Shown here: in pieces, positions 8,673 to 26,338 of the stretch
How the letters are laid out: the number at the start of each line of letters is the position of its first letter
Numbering within the stretch: position 1 is the stretch's first letter
Virus record (IMG/VR): IMGVR_UViG_2703718802_000011
Strand: one strand, 5' to 3'
DNA from: a virus
Taxonomy: Duplodnaviria > Heunggongvirae > Uroviricota > Caudoviricetes
DNA length: 48,734 nucleotides
Position numbers and translations under genes: made by a program
Notes under the pieces: model-generated
Database searches by the model: none
The model's input: only the letters and a program-made list of their open reading frames with translations
What the model was told of the DNA's origin: nothing

Positions 8673-9565
8673 TTTGATACCTCTTTGTTTACTGGGTTTA
8701 ATATCTGAGATGGTAGTTCTGAAAGATTCTCTTGTTCAAGTATATTTTGAAAGCTTTTATTCATCATTATGATGTTAAAAATCTCATTTATTATTAGTAG
8801 ATTGGTTTTTATAAATTTCGAGTTGTTATAAACAGATTTATGTTCAGCGATACTATTTTCATAAAGCTCAATCAACTCCTCTGCAGTCATCCTTTTTGAT
8901 GGTTTGTGATAATAAAATCCGGCTGCTTTTGCACCTTTATTCCCAACTGTTCTTTGATTTAGAATGTATTTTATCTTTATAATGTCCCGACTTTTTATTA
9001 ATTTTTTATCATATGCTTCGGTAAGAATATCTTGTGCTTCCTCAGTTTCACATCTTGCAAATTGCACTGCGAGATACAGAGGCAAATTGCCCCGTTCGAC
9101 TGCTGAGAGAAGTTTATGCTCTCCCTTATCAAGAAGCATATTAATACTGCTCACCCAGTTCGATGAATATCCAGTAATCTCACTTATTTCGGAGTCTGAA
9201 AGTCCTCTGATTTTCATGTCTTTAATCACCTGTAATAACTCATTAGAACGTGGTCTTCTCCTTGCAATGTTTTCAACTAAACTCATAACGTAAGCATCTT
9301 CTTCTGATACATCTCTTATAATTGCTGGAATAATAGTTTCACCTAATGCAACAAGAGCCTCTATTCTCCCTTGACCACAAATTAAAGCATATTTGAAATC
9401 GTCTTCATCAATAGCTCTTACGCTTATAGGCTTGCTTAATCCTCTTTTTTTTATGCTTTCCTTTATTTCTTCATGCACTACCTTATTTCTTGTTCGTGGG
9501 TTAAGAAATTTTATTTTTGCAATCTCAATTTGAATTATTGGGAATTCATTTTTTTCAGGCAGCAT
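8669..9565 (-). CDS. ParB-like partition/nuclease-domain protein with HTH
   Basis: 298 aa; 'ISVRAIDEDDFKYALICGQGRIEALVALGETIIPAII' (ParB box-like) followed by an HTH-like 'LSDSEISEITGYSSNWVSSI'; overlaps the recombinase 3' end. Confidence 0.5.
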   Translation of the reverse strand: MLPEKNEFPIIQIEIAKIKFLNPRTRNKVVHEEIKESIKKRGLSKPISVRAIDEDDFKYALICGQGRIEALVALGETIIPAIIRDVSEEDAYVMSLVENIARRRPRSNELLQVIKDMKIRGLSDSEISEITGYSSNWVSSINMLLDKGEHKLLSAVERGNLPLYLAVQFARCETEEAQDILTEAYDKKLIKSRDIIKIKYILNQRTVGNKGAKAAGFYYHKPSKRMTAEELIELYENSIAEHKSVYNNSKFIKTNLLIINEIFNIIMMNKSFQNILEQENLSELPSQILNPVNKEVSK

Positions 9566-11111
9566 ATAGTTCCCTCACTTTCATGCGAGTAATAATTTGT
9601 AGAAATTTATCAAGATTATCAAATCTATAGAGATCTAACCGAATGTTGTTTGTTTCCATCATACACATTTTACTATATTCGTTTTCAATCTTTGGTATGA
9701 TATAAAAATCAAGAGGTGAAATATTTTGTGAATTCATTCGTATAACAATTGTTATGTCTGCTTTCTGTGAGTTATCAAACCGGACTTTCCATCTAAGTTT
9801 ACCTGATTTCATATGTATGCATTTAGTAACAAGGACGGAAATTAAAAACTCATCATTGATGTAAAGCATTGGGTAATATTTATACTCGTCTATATGACAG
9901 TTACTTTTTAATATTTCGCCCTTAAAATCCTCAATTATCTCTGAGTAAAATGATCTTAGTGCTTCATTTATTTGGAGATAGCTGTAATCATGTTCTGGCT
10001 TATAACCAATCAAAGTATATGCTCTTAAAAGACCACCAAATCGGGTTCTATAAACAGAAGATGAAGGGCCTGTATCATCTTCATCAATGATAAAGCCTGA
10101 TAGTTTTCCATTAGATTCTAATTTTTCTTTTAGCTTTTCTAATAGATCTTCATTAGTCAAATGAATGGATCGGAGCTGAATTATTTCTTGAGCTTTATTA
10201 TATTTTTTCTTTGAAATAATTGGTTTATATGCCTTGTCACATCTAATCCATTCATGTTTGGGGTTTTTTACAAGCTTACTTTTTAGTTTAGATGAGGTTT
10301 TGTTATATATGTTGTTTCCAATATATTTTTCATTTGTCAAAATTTGATGTATTTTTGCACGAGTCCATGATGTTCCATTTTCTGCAGGTATGCTCTGTTC
10401 ATTTAATCTCTCAGCAATAATGAATTCTGGGACGTTACTATCTATAAAGAGATCATAGATTCTATTTACAATTTTTATTTCATTTTTTGGTCCCGGAATT
10501 AATATTACCCTATCTGTTTGAATACTCTTTCTTTTGCGGAAATTCAATATTTCTTTAGCTATGCCATTTTCGTCTACTAAAAGACGTCTCAGCCCATAAC
10601 CAGCCATACCGCCTTGATGATAACCAAGCTTTATTAAATTTACTTGCCCTATAAATACCTTTTCAGATAGATTCCTGCTGTGATATGCAGCACTTGATCT
10701 TTTTATATTCAGTATAACAGAGGACTCTAAAGGGAAATCTTTAGTGGGTATAGGTTCGGAACAATATATAAGATCTACACCATTTCTTTCAAATAGAAAG
10801 GAATAATATGCAGCTTCATCACTATTTTGAAAACGACCAAAACGGCTCACATCATAAAATAATACAGCCTGTATATCTATTTTCTTTTGTTCTACATCGC
10901 TAAGTAACTGCTGCAAAGAATGCCTGCCTACGATACTGACTCCGCTCTTACCTGCATCATCGTAGGTATAAGCGATTTCCATATTGTTCTTTTCAGCATA
11001 ATCTTTGATATATTCAGACTGATTATGTAAAGAATATTGCTGATGGTCGGTAGACATCCTCAAGTACTGTGCGACCCTAACTCTATGATTTTTTTCATTT
11101 CCGCTAGCCAT
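9555..11111 (-). CDS. Large serine recombinase
   Basis: N-terminal catalytic motifs 'YLRMSTDHQ' (Ser nucleophile), 'DDAGKSG', 'GRHSLQQLL', 'DVSRFGR', plus a large C-terminal domain. ATG at 11109-11111 (track ORF begins at TTG 11117). Confidence 0.7.
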   Translation of the reverse strand: MASGNEKNHRVRVAQYLRMSTDHQQYSLHNQSEYIKDYAEKNNMEIAYTYDDAGKSGVSIVGRHSLQQLLSDVEQKKIDIQAVLFYDVSRFGRFQNSDEAAYYSFLFERNGVDLIYCSEPIPTKDFPLESSVILNIKRSSAAYHSRNLSEKVFIGQVNLIKLGYHQGGMAGYGLRRLLVDENGIAKEILNFRKRKSIQTDRVILIPGPKNEIKIVNRIYDLFIDSNVPEFIIAERLNEQSIPAENGTSWTRAKIHQILTNEKYIGNNIYNKTSSKLKSKLVKNPKHEWIRCDKAYKPIISKKKYNKAQEIIQLRSIHLTNEDLLEKLKEKLESNGKLSGFIIDEDDTGPSSSVYRTRFGGLLRAYTLIGYKPEHDYSYLQINEALRSFYSEIIEDFKGEILKSNCHIDEYKYYPMLYINDEFLISVLVTKCIHMKSGKLRWKVRFDNSQKADITIVIRMNSQNISPLDFYIIPKIENEYSKMCMMETNNIRLDLYRFDNLDKFLQIITRMKVRELYAA

Positions 11112-11393
11112 GCACAAAACCTCATGGATGATTCAATACAATGTAGAGGATAAAATTGATCAAATTTTAACCGAATTCAACTGTTTTATCATTGATTAGA
11201 GCGAATTTGGTAGTTCTTCGAGGTGTATGATAATCGAGAAGAGATGTGAATTATTTAGCTGATATGACCGACAGCTTTCGTTATGTGGCCTCAAGGTACC
11301 CATTTGTAAATGGCTATGCTTAGTCCACATAGGTTAATGGTGTGATCATTAATTCTTCAAATAAATCAAGATAGTTAACCCATCATGGAAGAG

Positions 11394-12623
11394 TTATGCG
11401 GCAATAACTTTGTATTTTTGAGACGAAACATAGTCACTCCACCATTGCATGAGAACCACACGTTCTGTGAGATACTCTGCACGATTGTAGGCTGCAATTA
11501 TTTCATCTTTTTTCGAGTGGGCAAGGGCGGCTTCTAAGACATCAGTTCTAAACTTGCCACACTCCTCAGCCGCCGTTCTAGCGATTGATCGCATACCATG
11601 AGCTACAAGCTCACCTCCGAAGCCCATACGGATTATAGCCGCATTAGCTGTTTGTTCATGCATGTGATTGAGTGGAGCTTTGATACTGGGAAAAACCCAC
11701 TCTCTATGCCCGCTGATGGCTTTCATTGAATCCAAGACTCGCAAAGATTCTTTGCTCAGTGGAACTTTGTGAGGCTTCTTCATTTTCATAAACTCCGCCG
11801 GGATGTTCCACATGCTGGTTTCTATATCAATATCTGACCATCTTGTGCGAACAGCTTCACCAGGGCGAACCCATGTGAGAAGTTGCCACTCAATCAGTAG
11901 CCTTGTTTCTAAACGGATAGAAGCATTGTTTAGAGCAACCAGGAAGCGGGGGAGTTCGGAAGGGGGTAATGCTGGCATATTCTGTTTTTTTGGCTTGCTG
12001 AACCGTTGCCCCAGGTTGTCAGCCGGATTGAATTCTATGAGTTCTTCTGTTGCTGCATAGCGGAAAATTTCATTCAGGCGGGATATGACGCGGCGAAGTG
12101 TTTCAAGGACACCTCGTTTTTCTATGGGGTCTAAATGCTGTTTAAGCATTTTAGGGCGAATCTCCTTAATGGGGGTATCACCCAACGTTGGAAAGATATT
12201 TCTCTCTAGGCTTCGCCAGATGTCGTTAGCATGATCCTGGGAGATGCCTGACGTTTTGACTTTCTCATCAAGCCACTTCTTGGCTACTGCTTGAAATGTA
12301 TGTTCCGTTGCATCCTTAAGGGCATTGGCTTTGTGGGTGTTATGAACTTGTGGGTCTATACCATTTGCAAGCAACGACAAGTACTCATCACGTAAAGCTC
12401 GTGCCTTCGCAAGTGTAAGGTGAGGATAGGTTCCTAAGCTCACCTTAGTTCGCTTTTTGGTCACAGGCACTGCATATCTGAAATACCAATTTTTCTTTCC
12501 TCCCTTCGCTAAGGGGGCGATTCGCAGGAGCAAACCATCGCCGTCAAAAAGGTTAACCTCTTTCTCGGCAGGTTTGGTGCTTTTGATTTCAGTGTCAGTG
12601 AGCTTCTTAGCGATTTTTGCCAT
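11394..12623 (-). CDS. P4-type tyrosine integrase
   Basis: Starts at ATG 12621-12623 ('MAKIAKKLTDTEIK'); P4-like N-terminal arm-binding region and C-terminal catalytic region ending with a Tyr motif ('YNRAEYLTER'); adjacent to the ssrA 3'-end repeat. Confidence 0.8.
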   Translation of the reverse strand: MAKIAKKLTDTEIKSTKPAEKEVNLFDGDGLLLRIAPLAKGGKKNWYFRYAVPVTKKRTKVSLGTYPHLTLAKARALRDEYLSLLANGIDPQVHNTHKANALKDATEHTFQAVAKKWLDEKVKTSGISQDHANDIWRSLERNIFPTLGDTPIKEIRPKMLKQHLDPIEKRGVLETLRRVISRLNEIFRYAATEELIEFNPADNLGQRFSKPKKQNMPALPPSELPRFLVALNNASIRLETRLLIEWQLLTWVRPGEAVRTRWSDIDIETSMWNIPAEFMKMKKPHKVPLSKESLRVLDSMKAISGHREWVFPSIKAPLNHMHEQTANAAIIRMGFGGELVAHGMRSIARTAAEECGKFRTDVLEAALAHSKKDEIIAAYNRAEYLTERVVLMQWWSDYVSSQKYKVIAA

Positions 12624-12720
12624 GTTTGGGACCCTCATGTTTTGGACCCTTTGTGTTGGGTCCCAAAAAGGGTGCCATAACGAGTAGATTCTAGCAATTC
12701 TCGGTAGACTACTATAGACG

Positions 12721-12754
12721 TAAAAAAGCCCGCAAGGCTGGTTCCATGCGGGCT
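12721..12754 (-). terminator. Rho-independent terminator downstream of the displaced ssrA 3'-end copy
   Basis: Stem agcccgca/tgcgggct (12727-12734 / 12747-12754) followed on the minus strand by a T-run (complement of aaaaaa at 12722-12727). Confidence 0.55.
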
Positions 12755-12788
12755 TGATAGACTTCACTGAACTTCAATATATCAAAAA

Positions 12789-12834
12789 TTGGTGGAGCTG
12801 GCGGGAGTTGAACCCGCGTCCGAAATTCCTACAT
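12789..12834 (-). repeat. attR-type direct repeat: 46-bp copy of the ssrA 3' end
   Basis: 'ttggtggagctggcgggagttgaacccgcgtccgaaattcctacat' is identical to 47674-47719 and diverges immediately after. Confidence 0.85.
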
Positions 12835-18982: not shown

Positions 18983-19809
18983 AAGAAATGCACCACGAAA
19001 TTCATCATTTCCATGGGACGCCTGTCTGGGGAAGTGCTGGCGACGTTCATCGTATTGCGGTGAGCGGAGCTGGCGCTTTCGTCTCCTATGTACGACCAGA
19101 TCAGATTGCGGCGTCCATTCAGCATGCTCAGGTCGTCGGCATTGATAACGGCGCATTTTCTGCATGGGTGCGTGGGCTAAAAATTAACTGGAGTGATTTT
19201 TATAAATGGCTCCTGAACTATTACCACCATCCTAAGGTCGCTTTTTTTGTCATTCCTGATGTTGTGGACGGCGGTGAACGTGACAATGATGCCCTGATAA
19301 ACGAAGTTCCGAAAATGTTCTACGGGAAGGCAACTCCCGTCTGGCATCTGCACGAGTCAATCGATCGGCTTATCGAGCTATGTCGTGAATGGCCTCGTGT
19401 CTGCTTTGGATCGTCTGGTGAATATGCGGCTATCAGAACTGCGCACTGGCATCGTCGTATGCAGGACGCTTTTGAAGCAATTTATTGCCGACACAATTTC
19501 AAAACAGCTGTTCATGGTTTGCGCATGCTTGACGGTCGTGTGTTGGGAAATTACCCACTGGCGACTGCCGACAGTACAAATCTTGCCTGCAATGTCCCCA
19601 AATTTAATAGCAAATATCCTGAGCTTACGCGGGCTATTCAGGAGGCTGAGTATTCGCGCAATCTGACGGAAAAGGAGCTGAAAGCTGTCATTCTGAAAAA
19701 CCGTTGCGCAATTTTAAAAGGTGCAATTGAAGCTGTTCGCCCACCTTCAGTTTCTGATTGGCTGTCGAATGGTTTGCAGCCTTCACAGCTCGAACTGGAG
19801 ATTGCGTAA
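18979..19809 (+). CDS. Hypothetical protein between dam and the replication gene
   Basis: 276-aa ORF (GTG 18979 or ATG 18988) overlapping the dam stop and the A start; no motif I can assign. Confidence 0.45.
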
Positions 19810-22181
19810 TGAACTACAGCTATTCCTGGAATGCTGAGAAAAAAGCAATCAATCCTTACGTAGGGACAGAAGAGCAATCTTCAGTTTCTGCGCTTTCAAA
19901 CCTGATCGCTCTGTACGCTGCCGATAACGAGCAGGAACACCTGCGCCGCGAGGTACTGAGTGATCAGGTCTGGGAGCGTTATTTCTTTAATGAATCCCGT
20001 GATCCTGTCCAGCGCGAAATGGAGCAGGATAAGCTCATTAGTCGGGCAAAGCTGGCGCATGAGCAGCAGCGTTTTAATCCGGACATGGTCATTCTGGCTG
20101 ACGTCAACGCCCAGCCTTCCCATATCAGCAAGCCGCTGATGCAACGTATTGAATATTTCAGCAGCCTGGGCAGGCCAAAGGCTTATTCCCGCTATTTGCG
20201 TGAGACGATTAAGCCATGTCTGGAACGACTGGAGCATGTACGCGACAGCCAGCTATCTGCATCTTTTCGTTTTATGGCAAGCCATGAAGGGCTGGACGGT
20301 CTGCTGATCCTGCCTGAAATGAGTCAGGATCAGGTGAAACGCCTGTCTACCCTTGTCGCTGCGCATATGAGCATGTGTCTTGATGACGCTTGTGGTGATT
20401 TGTATGCCACCGATGACGTTAAGCCAGAAGAAATCCGCAAGACATGGGAAAGGGTGGCAGCAGAAACCCTGCGACTGGATGTCATTCCACCTGCGTTTGA
20501 GCAACTCCGCCGGAAAAGAAACCGCCGTAAACCCGTGCCCTATGAACTCATTCCGGGTTCGCTGGCGCGTATGTTGTGCGCCGACTGGTGGTATCGGAAA
20601 TTATGGAAGATGCGTTGCGAATGGCGGGAAGAGCAGTTGCGCGCTGTCTGCCTGGTCAGCAAAAAAGCATCTCCCTATGTCAGCTATGAAGCCGTGATGC
20701 ATAAACGTGAGCAGCGCCGTAAGTCGCTGGAGTTTTTTCGTTCTCATGAACTGGTGAACGAAGACGGCGACACGCTGGATATGGAAGACGTGGTAAACGC
20801 CAGCAGCAGCAACCCTGCGCATCGCCGCAATGAGATGATGGCCTGTGTTAAAGGTCTGGAGCTTATCGCGGAAATGCGCGGTGACTGCGCCGTTTTCTAC
20901 ACCATCACCTGTCCGTCACGTTTCCATTCCACGCTAAATAACGGCAGACCAAACCCGACCTGGACAAACGCGACAGTAAGACAAAGCAGTGATTATCTGG
21001 TCGGCATGTTTGCTGCATTTCGTAAAGCGATGCACAAAGCTGGATTGCGCTGGTATGGCGTGCGGGTGGCTGAGCCGCATCATGACGGTACAGTTCACTG
21101 GCACCTGTTGTGTTTTATGCGCAAAAAAGATCGCCGAGCCATTACTGCTTTGTTGCGTAAGTTTTCCATTCGTGAAGACCGCGAGGAGCTGGGTAATAAC
21201 ACGGGACCACGCTTTAAGTCTGAGCTGATAAACCCGCGTAAAGGTACGCCAACAAGCTACATCGCGAAATACATCAGTAAGAACATTGACGGACGTGGTC
21301 TGGCTGGTGAGATCAGCAAGGAAACGGGTAAATCCCTGCGTGATAACGCTGAATACGTTAATGCCTGGGCGTCTCTGCATCGTGTTCAGCAATTCCGCTT
21401 CTTTGGTATTCCGGGGCGTCAGGCTTACCGTGAACTGCGATTGCTGGCTGGTCAGGCGGCAAGGCAGCAGGGGGACAAAAAAGCAGGTGCGCCGGTACTG
21501 GATAACCCACGCCTTGATGCCATCCTGGCTGCTGCTGATGCTGGCTGTTTTGCCACCTACATCATGAAGCAGGGCGGCGTGCTGGTTCCCCGCAAATATC
21601 ACCTTATCAGAACAGCTTATGAAATTAACGAAGAGCCGACCGCCTATGGCGATCACGGCATTCGTATTTATGGCATCTGGTCACCCATTGCAGAGGGCAA
21701 GATCTGCACTCATGCAGTGAAGTGGAAAATGGTTCGTAAAGCCGTTGACGTTCAGGAGGCGGCAGCCGACCAGGGCGCTTGCGCCCCTTGGACTCGTGGC
21801 AATAACTGTCCCCTTGCTGAAAATTTGAACCAACAGGAGAAAGATAAATCAGCTGATGGGGACCCCAGAACGGACATTACCCGCATGGATGACAAGGTGT
21901 TGCACGATTACCTGCACAGTATGAACAAAAAGAAGCGCCGGGAATTGGCTGCAAGGTTACGTCTGGTGAAACCGAAACGGCGTAGAGACTACAAACAGCG
22001 AATTACAGACCATCAACGACAGCAGCTTGTCTATGAACTGAAATCCAGAGGATTTGATGGCAGCGAGAAAGAGGTCGATTTACTCCTTCGCGGCGGCAGT
22101 ATTCCGTCAGGAGCAGGCCTGCGTATCTTCTATCGGAACCAGCGTTTGCAGGAAGATGATAAGTGGCGGAACCTGTATTAA
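19809..22181 (+). CDS. A: Rolling-circle replication initiator endonuclease (P2 gpA / 186 A homologue)
   Basis: 791 aa from ATG 19809 (overlapping the upstream TAA); HUH motif 'VHWHLLCF' and tyrosine motif 'YIAKYISK'; conserved position upstream of the cargo hotspot. Confidence 0.85.
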
Positions 22182-22335: not shown

Positions 22336-22524
22336 ATGCAGGACTATTTTTTGGAGTCTTTGAAGCTCCAGCGCATTGATTTTTTTCTTAAGCTTGTAGC
22401 GGCTAGTGAGTGCGATGATGAAGAGAAGCGGCTTGCTATCCAGTGGGTTTCGGAGCTGACCGATGAGTTAATGGCGAAAATCCGTACTCATGAGTACAAC
22501 CGTTCAATGGATCTCCCCGGTTAG
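22336..22524 (+). CDS. Small LexA-regulated protein, candidate Tum-like antirepressor
   Basis: 62-aa ORF with AGGAGG RBS (22326-22331) directly downstream of the SOS box; same relative position as the SOS-controlled tum locus of phage 186. Confidence 0.5.
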   Translation: MQDYFLESLKLQRIDFFLKLVAASECDDEEKRLAIQWVSELTDELMAKIRTHEYNRSMDLPG

Positions 22525-23109
22525 GCTTAGGAACGTTGCTGGCGTTAGGACTTGATTCTGACGCTAGCAAGGTTGATCAACGAGCCATGCGAGGCGTTAG
22601 TCATGGGCAAAAAAATAGTAACTTCCAGATTTTGTTTCGTGCCAGGTATTGAGTAGTTTTATCGCCAGAGGGGCTGTTAGCGCTCAAACTACTAATGGAG
22701 CCACACCTTAGATGAGTGATTTGGCTTAAGCTATGATTATATAGTTTTGCTGTACGGCGGCCTTGCTTTTTATTGAAGCGACCAGACTGGAACAACGGCG
22801 AAAGGAGACTAACGATACGCACCAGTTTTTTGAAAAGGTACAGTTATCTAGATTGGTTGCCAATTTTCGTTGAAGCCTGACATACCATTAGGTCATTGCT
22901 TTAGAAAAATTAATACTTGATGTGAGAATTGCTTCAAAACATCTAGAATTAAAGTTTCTTTACTAGTATGCTTCACCACTTGGTCGTTGGGTTGAGTGCA
23001 AAAGCTAAGGCTGATGCCCAGTACGCTATCCGCATTATTGCCAGAGAACCGATTCGAAACCGGAATCTGGCAGAGCATGGGCGCAAGTGCTGGCTTCCCA
23101 ACGGCCTCG

Positions 23110-24078
23110 TTATTTATAATATGCTGACTTCAAAACCACTCGTCTTTCAACCTGCTGTGATAGCATTACCGCGTTAGTCCAATCTTTTGGATACCTTATT
23201 TCTTCTATAACACGAATATAAGCACATACTTTATTTTTTCCCTCTCCTTTGGCATAAGTAACCTCTAGATTATTAAATTTCAATAAGTGCTCTCTTCTTT
23301 GGTAAGTAAAACAGCCGTAATCACGGACATCAGAAGAAGTAATAGCATGAGTTGAAGGAAACCGAACTAGTAAATTTCTCAAGTAGGGAATAATGTCCAA
23401 ACTCGTTGCTTTGTTTTCTTCTCTGCGACTCTTTCTGAACATATGTCTCCAACCCAGCCGTGTAAGCTCGATTTTCCCAAGCACCGGAGATGTGATTTCT
23501 TTCTGTTCAGAATAACGTTTTTTAACAAACGCTCGCCGATTATTAAGTAGTGAGTTTCTTCTTCTTACATGGATTCCTTTTGCTCCAGTTTCACCTGCAC
23601 GTACCATGGACATACAGCGAGCCAGGTCAAACCGTGTAGCCGGAGTGATTAAGTGATATTCTCCATAAGTTTGGTTTTTAAGGGTAGTGTTTGGATGTAT
23701 ATAGGCCCAAAATGCTTTACGATTAGTTCTGTCAACCCAAACGACACATATATGGTGAGTTGTCCTTTTGGCTGCTTTTTTTGCGGCCGAATTTAATACA
23801 AAACCTTTCTCTAATAAATGACCATAAGTTGCCCCTGATTTAACTTGCGACAATATAAGCATTCTTTCTTTTGATGCCCATGGATGTTCGAAGGATAATA
23901 TTAAATCTATTTTTGAATTGTCGTCTTCCCTGGAACCCCAGTGCCCCTCTCCTCTACAAGCAAGAATGAATTGACTCATTGCATAAGATTCGGCGTCACT
24001 GCCGTTAACTGAGTTAAACTGTCTTGTTTCTAGCACAGTTGGTATTGGTCGTGATGCAAGTAAACTGAAAGATCCCAC
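23110..24078 (-). CDS. Hypothetical cargo protein in the A-Q hotspot
   Basis: 322-aa ORF on the opposite strand to flanking phage genes, AT-rich, with no P2/186 counterpart at this position. Confidence 0.5.
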   Translation of the reverse strand: MGSFSLLASRPIPTVLETRQFNSVNGSDAESYAMSQFILACRGEGHWGSREDDNSKIDLILSFEHPWASKERMLILSQVKSGATYGHLLEKGFVLNSAAKKAAKRTTHHICVVWVDRTNRKAFWAYIHPNTTLKNQTYGEYHLITPATRFDLARCMSMVRAGETGAKGIHVRRRNSLLNNRRAFVKKRYSEQKEITSPVLGKIELTRLGWRHMFRKSRREENKATSLDIIPYLRNLLVRFPSTHAITSSDVRDYGCFTYQRREHLLKFNNLEVTYAKGEGKNKVCAYIRVIEEIRYPKDWTNAVMLSQQVERRVVLKSAYYK

Positions 24079-24515
24079 TTATAGTTCTCTCCAAAAAATT
24101 GCATAATCTTGAACGCTAAAAAATAGTATACAAACTAAAGTATTTTTTCATTTAATTCAATGTATTGGCTAAAATTAAGACATTTATAGCTATATGTACT
24201 AGATAACATAGCGTTGTTTTCCTTTTGAAATCTCTTCTTGTGGTAACACAACAGTATTTACTCAAGTAGTTTGTCACTGCATGGGGAGATTTCGCTATGT
24301 CCGCGGCATCATACAGATGCGATAGATTTTCAGCATGACCTTGGGTAGCAAATCTGTAGGTATCATCCATTGCACCTCAAAGTAACTCTGGTGCATACCT
24401 ATGCTGCATGAAAATGAATGATCGCTAGTGGATCGTTTATGTCGAAGCCTGCCAGTTCTGACGGGCTTTTGCTTATGTTATGCAACTGCATGAAAACCAC
24501 TACACAAAGCGGGCA

Positions 24516-24686: not shown

Positions 24687-25601
24687 ATGCCATACCAATT
24701 GGTAGAGCTTAGCCCCGTAGCTAACGATCTTGAACAGTTAGGAACCAAAGAGAAGTTTTGGTTCTATTTCTCCGATGACACTGTAAATTTGCAGTTGTTT
24801 AAGTACTCTAGGCCAGGTACTGGCGAGCATTGGTCTGAAAAGTGTGCTGCTGAGTTATGTCATTTGCTTAACATTCCACATGCTAGCTATGATTTGGCGC
24901 GATACAATGGTCGATTCGGTGTGGTGACTCAGAATATCATTCCATCTGGTTTCCGGATGGTAATGGGAAATGAAGTGCTTCACAGTTCGACATTCGATTA
25001 TCCTGGGCCTTTACAAGCCGGGGAAAAGCCGGTAAGGGTCAGAGAACACACTGTCACAAGGGTATTGGGTTGTTTGGATAGGGAATCTATCAAGCCTCCT
25101 CCGAGTGTATATGATCTAACCGGGCTAAATGCAGCAGATGTATTTTGTGGATATTTGATGCTCGATGCACTTGTGAGTAATCAAGATCGCCATCATGAAA
25201 ATTGGGCGATCATGCTTAACAATGAAACTGGTGAGCAGTTTTTGTGTCCAACATACGATCATGCCGCTAGTTTAGGAAGGGAGATGTTAGATGATGAGCG
25301 TAACGAACGGCTTAATACTAAAGATAAAAATCGACAAATCCCATGTTTTGTAAGAAAAGCTCGCTCTGAGCTATTCAAAGCAAAAACTGATAAAAAGCCC
25401 TTGCTGACCGTTGAAGCATTTCAACATGCAGTTGAAGGGAGAGTTGCCGCTCGCGACCATTGGTTAGGTAAGTTGAGCGTTTTAACAGAAGATTCCATTA
25501 CAGATGTGTTTAACCAAGTGCCTTCATCGTGTATATCCGACAGTGCACGTAGATTTGCAACGTTAATGGTAATGGAAAATCGCAGAAGGTTACTAGAATG
25601 A
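24687..25601 (+). CDS. HipA-like (HipT-type) serine/threonine kinase domain protein
   Basis: 304 aa; 'LGTKEKFWF' (HipA P-loop-like) near the N-terminus, catalytic 'SNQDRHHENWA' (D-x-H-x2-N, about nt 25185) and 'CPTYDHAASLG' (HipA D332-region-like). Confidence 0.65.
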   Translation: MPYQLVELSPVANDLEQLGTKEKFWFYFSDDTVNLQLFKYSRPGTGEHWSEKCAAELCHLLNIPHASYDLARYNGRFGVVTQNIIPSGFRMVMGNEVLHSSTFDYPGPLQAGEKPVRVREHTVTRVLGCLDRESIKPPPSVYDLTGLNAADVFCGYLMLDALVSNQDRHHENWAIMLNNETGEQFLCPTYDHAASLGREMLDDERNERLNTKDKNRQIPCFVRKARSELFKAKTDKKPLLTVEAFQHAVEGRVAARDHWLGKLSVLTEDSITDVFNQVPSSCISDSARRFATLMVMENRRRLLE

Positions 25602-26338
25602 CTAATACAAACTCCGTTTACGTCGCATGGCAGGCACCAGATACCAGAGACTGGCATGTTGTTGGTAACTTGCAAGAGCGCAAATCGGGGTATGTTTTCA
25701 GGTATACCAAAGGTGCTCTTAAATCTACTAAATTTACAAAGTTTAGCGGCATGAGTGATGTTCGTGAAACTTATGTTTCGGAAGAATTGTTTCCTCTTTT
25801 TAAAAATCGCCTTTTATCACCGAGACGTCCAGAGTATCCGAGTTTCATTAAATGGCTTGGATTTGAAGAAGATAAGGTAAATCCTATCGATATTCTTGCT
25901 CGCTCGGGAGGCTTACGAAGCACTGATCAGCTGCAGATTTTCAAAAAAATTGATGTTGATTCTGATGGTAACTTTGAGCATTTTTTCTTCTTACATGGAC
26001 TTGGTTACTTAAATAGCTTAGCTAATGCTCGTGTATCTGAATTGAAACCGGGGCAAATTTTGCGTCTTTGCTTGGATCTTCAAAATGAATACGATGGGGA
26101 TGCTGTTGTCGTTCGTGCAGATAAACCAGCTGAAATCGTTGGTTACTGCCCTAGGTATTTAAGTAATGATATCAAGAAGATGTTATTGGATGATCCAAAA
26201 TCAATCACTTTAACGGTCGAAAAGATTAGCGATGATGCTCCTCATAACTATCGGTTATTATGTAAATTATCAGGAGTACTAAGCCAAGCCTGTCAATCGA
26301 CGCTGATTCCTCAGGATGAGTTTGAACCTATTGAGTAA
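25598..26338 (+). CDS. HipA N-terminal (HipS-like) domain fused to a HIRAN-like domain
   Basis: ATG overlaps the kinase stop (ATGA). N-terminus 'VVGNLQERKSGYVFRY...EELFPLFKNRLLSPRR...NPIDILARSGGLRS' resembles the HipA N-subdomain; C-terminus 'ILRLCLDLQNEYDGDAVVVRADKPAEIVGYCPRYLS' resembles the HIRAN consensus. Confidence 0.5.
   Translation: MTNTNSVYVAWQAPDTRDWHVVGNLQERKSGYVFRYTKGALKSTKFTKFSGMSDVRETYVSEELFPLFKNRLLSPRRPEYPSFIKWLGFEEDKVNPIDILARSGGLRSTDQLQIFKKIDVDSDGNFEHFFFLHGLGYLNSLANARVSELKPGQILRLCLDLQNEYDGDAVVVRADKPAEIVGYCPRYLSNDIKKMLLDDPKSITLTVEKISDDAPHNYRLLCKLSGVLSQACQSTLIPQDEFEPIE

Follow-up and report, generated by a model that had tools for sequence, protein, structure and literature searches.

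We analysed a 48,734-nucleotide stretch of viral DNA (IMG/VR record IMGVR_UViG_2703718802_000011; hereafter the window), which carries a P2-like prophage with CI, CII, Dam methylase, gpA, portal, terminase, scaffold and capsid genes. Its gpA-gpQ interval contains a 322-amino-acid gene for a predicted two-domain nuclease of the DUF4365/DREN type, and convergent with this gene, abutting its stop codon, lies a conserved structured element that is probably a small RNA gene. We hold this gene-plus-RNA description of the locus to be highly probable, and the RNA partner appears to be previously undescribed. Its genomic context makes an anti-phage role for the locus likely. We give even chances to the fuller proposal that gene and RNA form a two-part anti-phage module carried as hotspot cargo, in which the RNA would restrain or direct a collateral nuclease.

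A conserved gene read from a GTG start

An earlier sequence-only reading of the window had reported a 322-amino-acid open reading frame (ORF) on the minus strand, and the ORF list contains it exactly as described, with a GTG start (Table 1). The same reading had called the gene an orphan. This label did not survive a search of 5.8 billion proteins, which returned at least 179 homologues of one architecture at E≤1e-3, most of them approximately 320 amino acids long and covering 99% of the query. A 64-sequence alignment of the family (A1) displayed invariant residues along the entire protein. Codon differences from an 82%-identical metagenomic homologue comprised 116 synonymous and 60 non-synonymous changes, with 14 and 9, respectively, falling in the first 33 codons. 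Judged from sequence, the frame is a real gene under purifying selection and not a chance ORF.

In RefSeq the protein is entered as WP_024187696.1, which has 289 residues (23110-23979), begins at an internal ATG (M34) and is the form annotated in all four E. coli carriers. The internal ATG is without a ribosome-binding site such as the GGAGAG found 8 nucleotides 5' of the GTG, and the long-form starts of homologues are also preceded by GGAG-like sites. Within the first 33 residues N22, N25, G26, D28 and E30 are nearly invariant in A1. Because the first 33 codons are conserved in homologues we preferred the 322-residue form, and since a ribosome-binding site also precedes the GTG, the RefSeq annotation is best regarded as truncated. 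The lengths of 289-294 residues given for several database homologues probably reflect the same start error. A literature search on WP_024187696 found no mention of it.

A structured element abuts the nuclease stop codon

At nearly every homologue locus a non-coding block is conserved 3' of the stop codon, in gamma-, beta- and alphaproteobacteria, Bacteroidota and a cyanobacterium. The block does not encode a peptide, because reading frames across it are broken between loci; a 61-amino-acid ORF downstream of the nuclease gene (22893-23078) was rejected as a small immunity protein for this reason. Conservation lies at the level of nucleotides and structure. A covariance model built from eight loci in the gene-sense orientation (R1) scored 99.9 bits at the window element, and a model in the plus orientation (R2) scored 101.8 bits and matched 22 loci overall. 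There was one match per homologue locus, always abutting the nuclease stop codon. On both strands of approximately 565-580 kb the models matched nowhere else, and the P2 variant lacking the gene also gave no match.

Paired cells amounted to 89% in the R1 alignment, compared with 71% in shuffles and approximately 30% in slid controls, and compensatory changes were present in 20 of 27 pairs. The 22-locus alignment (A9) gave 92.3%, against 74.2% for shuffles and 33-42% for slid controls, with compensatory changes in 27 of 38 pairs; as these alignments were fitted to the model, the pairing they report is somewhat inflated. Further pair types in A9 numbered 78 versus 56.9 in shuffles, and 0 of 500 shuffles reached as high a value. 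Fitting of the alignments does not account for the compensatory changes or for the slid-control values.

The window copy folds with a minimum free energy of −54.1 kcal/mol (z = −2.9). Its fold is a multi-helix junction in which a closing helix of 10-13 base pairs (P0) holds P4, P1 and P2/P3, and an A/U-rich tail after P0 extends into the final codons of the nuclease gene, the 3' end overlapping the stop codon. Loci differ in the sequence and length of the P3 hairpin and of the junction inserts; the unpaired sequence blocks are conserved across phyla. Scanning the whole window against Rfam 15 at gathering thresholds returned tmRNA only, and a permissive scan of 22850-23250 returned nothing relevant.

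The element was also considered as an attC recombination site and rejected: attC is a simple imperfect hairpin bounded by RYYYAAC...GTTRRRY at the cassette boundary, whereas the element forms a multi-helix junction whose closing helix covaries freely. At an integron locus of Vibrio parahaemolyticus (L041) the element occupies 6962-7105, apart from the attC repeats at approximately 5841-5971 and 7153-7257. At another locus (L003:8958-9140) the 5' part of the element, in the gene sense, is recognisable and the remainder diverges where an IS21 element abuts, with no RNA-model match; the RNA gene there may have been disrupted by the IS21 insertion.

The element folds best on the strand opposite the gene

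Consensus folding of the same loci with RNAalifold yielded −37.3 kcal/mol and 38 pairs on the plus strand versus −18.7 kcal/mol and 27 pairs in the gene sense, and for individual loci the minimum free energy was lower on the strand opposite the nuclease gene in 11 of 12. Read in the gene sense, P0 contains 1 G-U cell versus 18 A-C cells, and these A-C cells become G-U wobbles on the plus strand. The plus strand, on which the element folds best, is thus the favoured transcript strand on sequence grounds. A simple 3' untranslated region or terminator of the nuclease messenger RNA (mRNA) is disfavoured by the much weaker gene-sense fold.

A sigma-70-like promoter candidate (GTGAGA-16 nt-TAGAAT) was found upstream by consensus scan, and its −10 box can be matched by visual alignment to a perfect TATAAT at L039, the nearest of the homologue loci. 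Over 32 loci the best upstream promoter score averaged 7.5 out of 12 versus 5.7 for control windows, and scores of at least 9 occurred in 25% of loci versus 3% of controls. Many loci show a TTG −35 and a −10 box at a fixed distance, which would place the start of transcription at P0.

In the loci scanned, the RNA is not found without the nuclease gene

Metagenome and viral collections were scanned with an exact pattern taken from two conserved blocks of the element (CCAGYRCGCTAT, a gap of 45-75 nucleotides, then GCAAGYRCTGG). This gave 39 loci, 18 of them with strong RNA-model matches (26-103 bits). All 18 genuine copies were convergent with a nuclease homologue, the stop codon of which lay 13-28 nucleotides from the pattern. 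The other 21 loci scored below 18 bits or not at all and consisted of GC-rich coding sequence, three being the same membrane-protein gene. Neither TBLASTN nor the A1 profile hidden Markov model detected a nuclease in these 21 loci, and they share no Rfam family and no architecture. We considered them as a second RNA class and dismissed them as chance matches, approximately 10-20 of which are expected by our own estimate. In this sample every genuine copy of the RNA comes with the nuclease gene.

A conserved structured RNA gene likewise accompanies the nuclease in every main-family locus examined, so that the sequence-only reading's description of a single-gene factor no longer holds. A divergent subfamily of approximately 301-314 residues (loci L085, L086 and L034) has the same DUF4365 plus LPD3-like architecture, with gaps of approximately 190 nucleotides downstream.

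The N-terminal half is a predicted DREN-type nuclease

An AlphaFold2 model built on 64 homologues reached a mean predicted local distance difference test score (pLDDT) of 91.6 and a predicted template-modelling score (pTM) of 0.86, with two domains packed together. Its best 13 Foldseek matches in the Protein Data Bank (PDB) were all DREN-APAZ chains of SPARDA complexes, with E values down to 1.3e-7. DUF4365 (PF14280) was matched by 51 of the 64 aligned family members (best E 4.9e-7), divergent relatives matched it at 37-50 bits, exceeding the Pfam cut-off, and several database homologues carry a precomputed PF14280 assignment. Four residues, E44, D58, Q78 and K80, are invariant in the 64 sequences and lie on predicted strands. 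D58/Q78/K80 correspond to the catalytic D41/Q60/K62 of the NbaSPARDA DREN (PMC12205087), and Q78/K80 to the catalytic Q62/K64 of TmuRE (PMC10810196). As judged by family comparison and the structural model, the N-terminal part is a DUF4365/DREN PD-(D/E)XK nuclease with its catalytic set intact. The fold that the sequence-only reading had listed as unknown is therefore recognisable in this half of the protein, from Foldseek and from the Pfam matches of the family.

A profile-versus-sequence search of all PDB chains gave no match even at E≤10, and TBLASTN against 50,697 GenBank phage records likewise gave none. Homology to a phage structural or replication protein, which the earlier reading had named as refuting evidence, was found in none of the Pfam, PADLOC, PHROG, NCBIfam and TBLASTN searches.

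A basic C-terminal domain with weak similarity to LPD3

The C-terminal domain, modelled separately, reached a pLDDT of 90.9. It is basic throughout the family, with a mean isoelectric point of 10.3 and a net charge of +15. Residues 182-236 show a weak but recurrent similarity to LPD3 (PF18798), which 43 of the 64 members match with a best E of 4.7e-6; these matches are weak and cover approximately half of the 114-position profile. The domain resembles none of the modified-base readers compared (SRA, EVE, YTH, winged helix and EndoIII).

LPD3 is a domain of unknown function in polyvalent proteins of phages, plasmids and conjugative elements (Iyer et al. 2017, PMC5512222), where it co-occurs with predicted BECR-type RNase domains (PMC5512222). 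Both LPD3 and the present domain occur in conflict-system contexts. In contrast to LPD3, the domain described here is joined to a nuclease in a small stand-alone protein, and its matches mostly fall below the Pfam cut-off. An exhaustive profile search of 1.84 billion representative proteins found it in only 129 clusters, and in most full-length matches (approximately 300-340 residues) it is preceded by an N-terminal region of approximately 160 residues. Because most full-length matches share this layout, the two domains constitute one fixed architecture and are not shuffled modules.

The gene and RNA are cargo of the gpA-gpQ hotspot

The gene lies, as had been proposed, inside the gpA-gpQ interval, an established defence hotspot of P2-like phages (PMC9122126). 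In the common E. coli variant this hotspot holds a 62-amino-acid ORF, a DinI-like gene and a HipA-like kinase plus HIRAN pair. Comparison by BLASTN with a prophage of this type (L002) placed homology breakpoints at 22600 and 24383, which bound a 1.78-kb segment carrying the nuclease gene and the RNA element; the gene is thus cargo with no counterpart in the common variant, in keeping with the earlier reading, which saw no P2/186 counterpart at this position. The DinI-like (tum-like) gene, which follows the 62-amino-acid ORF in related prophages, has been deleted here between 22515 and 22529. The nuclease gene is accordingly convergent with gpA (19758-22181, plus strand) and the 62-amino-acid ORF (22336-22524, plus strand), as had been noted, and the tum gene that was included in that observation is absent from the window.

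On the other side, the gene is divergent from the HipA-like kinase (24687-25601, plus strand), again as reported. The kinase (304 residues) and the HIRAN protein (246 residues) are encoded by genes that overlap by 4 nucleotides (24687-26338, plus strand) and match the PADLOC candidate PDC-M03A/B (E 2e-122 and 3e-93) and PHROGs of unknown function. This pair fills the hotspot without the nuclease module in many E. coli P2-like prophages. The AT-richness of the nuclease gene was borne out, its GC content of 0.40-0.42 comparing with 0.52-0.54 for gpA and 0.55-0.60 for the structural genes.

The gene is rare in E. coli, being carried by 4 of 5426 complete genomes with BLASTN at near and distant sensitivity alike, and identical copies are present on five IMG/VR viral contigs. 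The stretch shared by the window and the homologue loci L039 and L040 is limited to the gene and approximately 125 nucleotides downstream. The remaining cargo consists of approximately 320 nucleotides beyond the RNA promoter (22601-22920) and approximately 300 nucleotides upstream of the nuclease gene (24079-24382); these remnants contain no conserved ORF and match neither the related loci nor any Rfam family. A 72-amino-acid ORF upstream on the same strand as the gene (24152-24370) was discarded as a partner, as it is conserved in no homologue locus.

Homologues occur in diverse defence and mobile contexts

Among 138 neighbour proteins from 19 loci there was no conserved protein neighbour, the commonest family occurring four times. 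Homologues were found in defence and mobile contexts, which are listed here as raw observations. One lies inside a trp operon, alone except for an adjoining tyrosine integrase and IS21 element, and one shares an island with a PLD-SNF2 helicase, an SLFN-like helicase, a MazG-like protein, MrcB_N-NOV_C, a resolvase and PrimPol. Another lies within a Dnd cluster that also contains an SBD-HNH enzyme and HEPN/MNT pairs, and another adjoins a type II CBASS, Fic and a Tn7-like element. Others stand beside Gabija/OLD-family genes, EcoRII and a methylase, and a Pantoea plasmid homologue adjoins a DUF4041 protein. The V. parahaemolyticus homologue (52% identity) is a chromosomal integron cassette between attC repeats. 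That cassette (L041:5841-7257) belongs to an array with 12-17 attC-type repeats in 11 kb and holds both the homologue and the RNA element, so the nuclease and RNA pair is also mobilised as a unit by integrons. Recurrence in such settings answers to the conservation in defence contexts that the earlier reading had looked for. The candidacy as a defence factor put forward by the sequence-only reading is thus sustained by the hotspot, the cargo status and these contexts, and stripped of the single gene and the unknown fold; it is from context that an anti-phage role is inferred.

A proposed two-part mechanism

DREN is a collateral DNase/RNase that is monomeric and inactive in isolation and becomes active on tetramerisation within SPARDA filaments (PMC12205087). 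Since the isolated domain requires tetramerisation, a fused regulatory part is to be expected. In the mechanism that we propose, the RNA would be made from its own promoter on the strand opposite the gene and would end at the nuclease stop codon. In uninfected lysogens it would keep the nuclease harmless; it might bind the basic C-terminal domain, base-pair with the nuclease mRNA at its 3' end, or do both, and the C-terminal domain and the RNA could jointly control self-association of the nuclease. Phage infection would upset this balance if the short-lived RNA were lost after host transcription shut-off, were cleaved, or were displaced by a phage molecule. The freed DREN domains would then self-associate and cut DNA, and possibly RNA, indiscriminately, and either destruction of the invader DNA or abortion of the infection would protect the lysogen population and the prophage from competing phages. 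Among the roles considered for the RNA we favour that of an antitoxin or a sensor, but we place low confidence in the specific switch.

A broader formulation, which we advance tentatively and rate below even chances, is that the pair represents a new class of immune module, an Argonaute-free DREN nuclease obligately paired with a structured RNA of its own that is transcribed independently. This RNA would be bound by the basic C-terminal domain and would serve as the switch (antitoxin or sensor) or as a targeting cofactor. In the boldest version the C-terminal domain would itself be a BECR-like RNase that processes or monitors the RNA, making the protein a dual DNase/RNase activated by RNA state.

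Several results weigh against the module as proposed. The window protein itself falls below the Pfam cut-offs for both of its domains (DUF4365: 12.9 bits, E 0.12, cut-off 24.3; LPD3: 14.5 bits, cut-off 27), and no family in PADLOC-DB 2.0, PHROG or NCBIfam matches it. The strand assignment is not unanimous, one pair showing 7 U-G cells in the gene sense. The window promoter is weak (9/12) and, because it lies approximately 25 nucleotides further upstream of the element than in most loci, tentative. The RNA model matched nothing in the gaps beside the divergent (approximately 305-residue) subfamily, which may be without the element, may carry a version too diverged to detect, or may have a different RNA. 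The model-fitted pair counts and the raw neighbour listing belong on the same side of the balance.

Alternative readings of the locus

The nuclease might act alone, as an innate or modification-dependent restriction effector whose C-terminal domain reads phage DNA, with the RNA as a type-I-like antisense regulator; readthrough nuclease mRNA would be fully complementary to the RNA, and pairing would trigger its degradation and keep expression low. The convergent geometry and the overlap of the RNA with the 3' end of the gene fit this arrangement, a nuclease fused to a C-terminal sensor is known from single-gene defence, for example the END nucleases (PMC12191111), and one homologue lies inside a Dnd/SBD-HNH cluster. 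We nevertheless consider it unlikely, as the multi-helix structure and unpaired blocks conserved across phyla exceed what simple pairing needs, the C-terminal domain is unlike known modified-base readers, and the DREN domains studied so far are collateral and not sequence- or modification-specific (PMC12205087, PMC10810196). The RNA could instead be a scaffold or guide cofactor that directs or licenses the nuclease, one protein and one RNA doing the job of SPARDA. In favour of this, the nuclease domain is the same as in RNA-guided SPARDA, RNA and protein are obligately linked, the C-terminal domain is strongly basic, and the P3 hairpin and junction inserts vary between loci. However, neither a repeat-spacer arrangement nor an evident means of acquisition was seen, the parts that vary form hairpins and not obvious single-stranded guides, and close relatives (the window and L039) differ in them by few bases, which leaves a cofactor role rather improbable.

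Two further possibilities concern the identity of the unit. A selfish mobile unit, made of a free-standing homing-type PD-(D/E)XK endonuclease (compare I-Ssp6803I) and a DNA-level recognition or recombination structure, would account for a conserved part limited to the gene and approximately 125 nucleotides in many unrelated contexts, and the structure could in principle form in single-stranded DNA. We judge it very unlikely: the unit is single-copy in all examined loci but one, where two Nodosilinea copies lie within a duplicated 13-kb block, no flanking repeats, target-site pattern, or intron or intein context were found, the Vibrio array has true attC sites separate from the element, and the strand-biased G-U-type wobbles in P0 together with the conserved promoter point to RNA. 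Alternatively, the protein could belong to Divona, a validated single-gene system that older databases miss. Divona, as described, resembles it in having an N-terminal DUF4365 nuclease fused to a second domain in a single gene, in being an integron cassette, as is the V. parahaemolyticus homologue of the window protein, and in having E. coli homologues near integrases. Membership is again improbable, to about the same degree as a nuclease acting alone, as PF08847 (crr6) was detected in 0 of 64 members (43 match LPD3) and 0 of 10 divergent relatives at E≤10 or E≤1, no V. cholerae protein was among the best 120 matches with either the E. coli or the V. parahaemolyticus query, and only 4 of 5426 E. 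coli genomes carry the window gene. Even if the protein were a member of Divona, its RNA partner would appear to be unreported.

Comparison with known systems

By analogy, the two-part module would work most like a DREN-based abortive-infection effector. It shares with the DREN-APAZ proteins of SPARDA (PDB 9vx6, 9qcc, 9jt2 and 9qbp) the nuclease fold and the D...QxK arrangement; both are placed in conflict between mobile elements and phages, and each system involves an RNA. Pfam searches of the protein and of neighbouring genes detected neither APAZ nor Piwi/MID, and no Argonaute gene adjoins the nuclease gene. Because it is without an APAZ domain and an Argonaute, the module is not SPARDA. 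In further contrast to SPARDA, the second domain is LPD3-like, basic and packed on the nuclease rather than flexibly tethered, and the RNA is fixed, genome-encoded and structured, unlike SPARDA guides, which are acquired from transcripts.

The nearest validated analogue appears to be Divona. This single-gene cassette from the sedentary chromosomal integron of V. cholerae has been shown experimentally to protect against phage (bioRxiv 10.1101/2024.07.02.601686). Divona and the present family each combine an N-terminal DUF4365 nuclease with a second domain of unknown role, and each occurs in integron cassettes as well as other mobile elements. The reported C-terminal domain of Divona is crr6/PF08847, in contrast to the LPD3-like domain here, a comparison made by description only, and no partner RNA has been reported for Divona.

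The pairing of a potentially toxic nuclease with a dedicated small RNA recalls type I and type III toxin-antitoxin systems, and restraint by a labile RNA would fit phage-triggered activation. In txpA/RatA-type type I pairs an antisense RNA overlaps the 3' end of the toxin gene, and the toxin is a small membrane peptide. In type III (ToxIN) systems the antitoxin is a tandem-repeat RNA encoded upstream of the toxin on the same strand and processed by the toxin. The convergent RNA overlapping the 3' end of the nuclease gene is in part similar to the type I arrangement, but the protein is a 322-residue two-domain DNase-type enzyme and not a small hydrophobic peptide, and how far RNA and mRNA overlap would depend on where the mRNA ends. 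In contrast to type III, only one copy of the element is present, its position is downstream of the gene and its best fold is on the opposite strand; the protein, moreover, is not a ToxN-like RNase. With P2 tin/old and the PDC-M03 pair the module shares the gpA-gpQ slot and a presumed exclusion of competing phages, but it has no sequence or fold relationship to them.

DREN nucleases have so far been understood only as effectors slaved to short Argonautes. If the proposal is correct, a widespread Argonaute-free DREN with its own RNA would represent a second and far more compact route by which RNA is coupled to a collateral nuclease, and a new RNA family would join the few known anti-phage non-coding RNAs, namely CRISPR RNAs, retron RNA, type III antitoxins and the DRT non-coding RNAs. 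At approximately 1.2 kb in total and present in E. coli prophages, the system is directly testable. Should the RNA gate the nuclease, the module might find use as a switchable nuclease, much as SPARDA does in diagnostics. The locus also illustrates that single-gene hotspot entries can hide non-coding partners overlooked by protein-centred pipelines, and it corrects a truncated RefSeq annotation.

Other features of the window

To the left of the prophage, positions 1-12800 form a separate AT-rich (29-37% GC) integrative island. Three overlapping co-oriented genes in it form an operon with no convincing PADLOC match, which looks like an uncharacterised conflict system. Coordinates of its genes are listed in Table 1 together with those of the nuclease locus.

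Table 1. Positions of the nuclease gene, its RNA element and other annotated features in the window.
Feature	Position	Strand	Remarks
Nuclease gene, 322 amino acids, GTG start	23110-24078	−	Includes stop codon (23110-23112); ORF list, homologues, alignment, model, codon changes
Shine-Dalgarno sequence GGAGAG	24087-24092	−	8 nucleotides 5' of GTG; read off the sequence
DUF4365/DREN-type PD-(D/E)XK nuclease domain (predicted), approximately residues 19-160	23599-24024	−	Invariant E44, D58, Q78, K80
Basic alpha/beta domain, LPD3-like, residues 166-322	23113-23583	−	Weak likeness to BECR/RelE-fold RNases
Structured non-coding element, probable small RNA gene, approximately 140 nucleotides	22976-23112	+	Convergent with nuclease gene; covariance model, covariation
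Sigma-70-like promoter candidate, GTGAGA-16 nt-TAGAAT	22922-22949	+	Consensus scan; tentative in the window
Cargo segment, 1.78 kb, nuclease gene and RNA element	22601-24382		Absent from the common E. coli P2-like variant; BLASTN
Tyrosine integrase	11394-12767	−	Island
Large serine recombinase	9555-11117	−	Island
Two ParB_N/RepB-like genes	8136-9565	−	Island
Ankyrin-repeat protein	610-1563	−	Island
Operon gene 1, NA-iREase2	3703-4764		Island; PF22723, E 6e-34
Operon gene 2, no family	4764-5819		Island
Operon gene 3, RelA_SpoT nucleotidyltransferase	5819-6724		Island; E 3e-15

At the right end of the window lies the tmRNA gene ssrA (47675-48037, minus strand; 295.8 bits), with the tag peptide ANDENYALAA. 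This site probably marks an attachment region for integrative elements.

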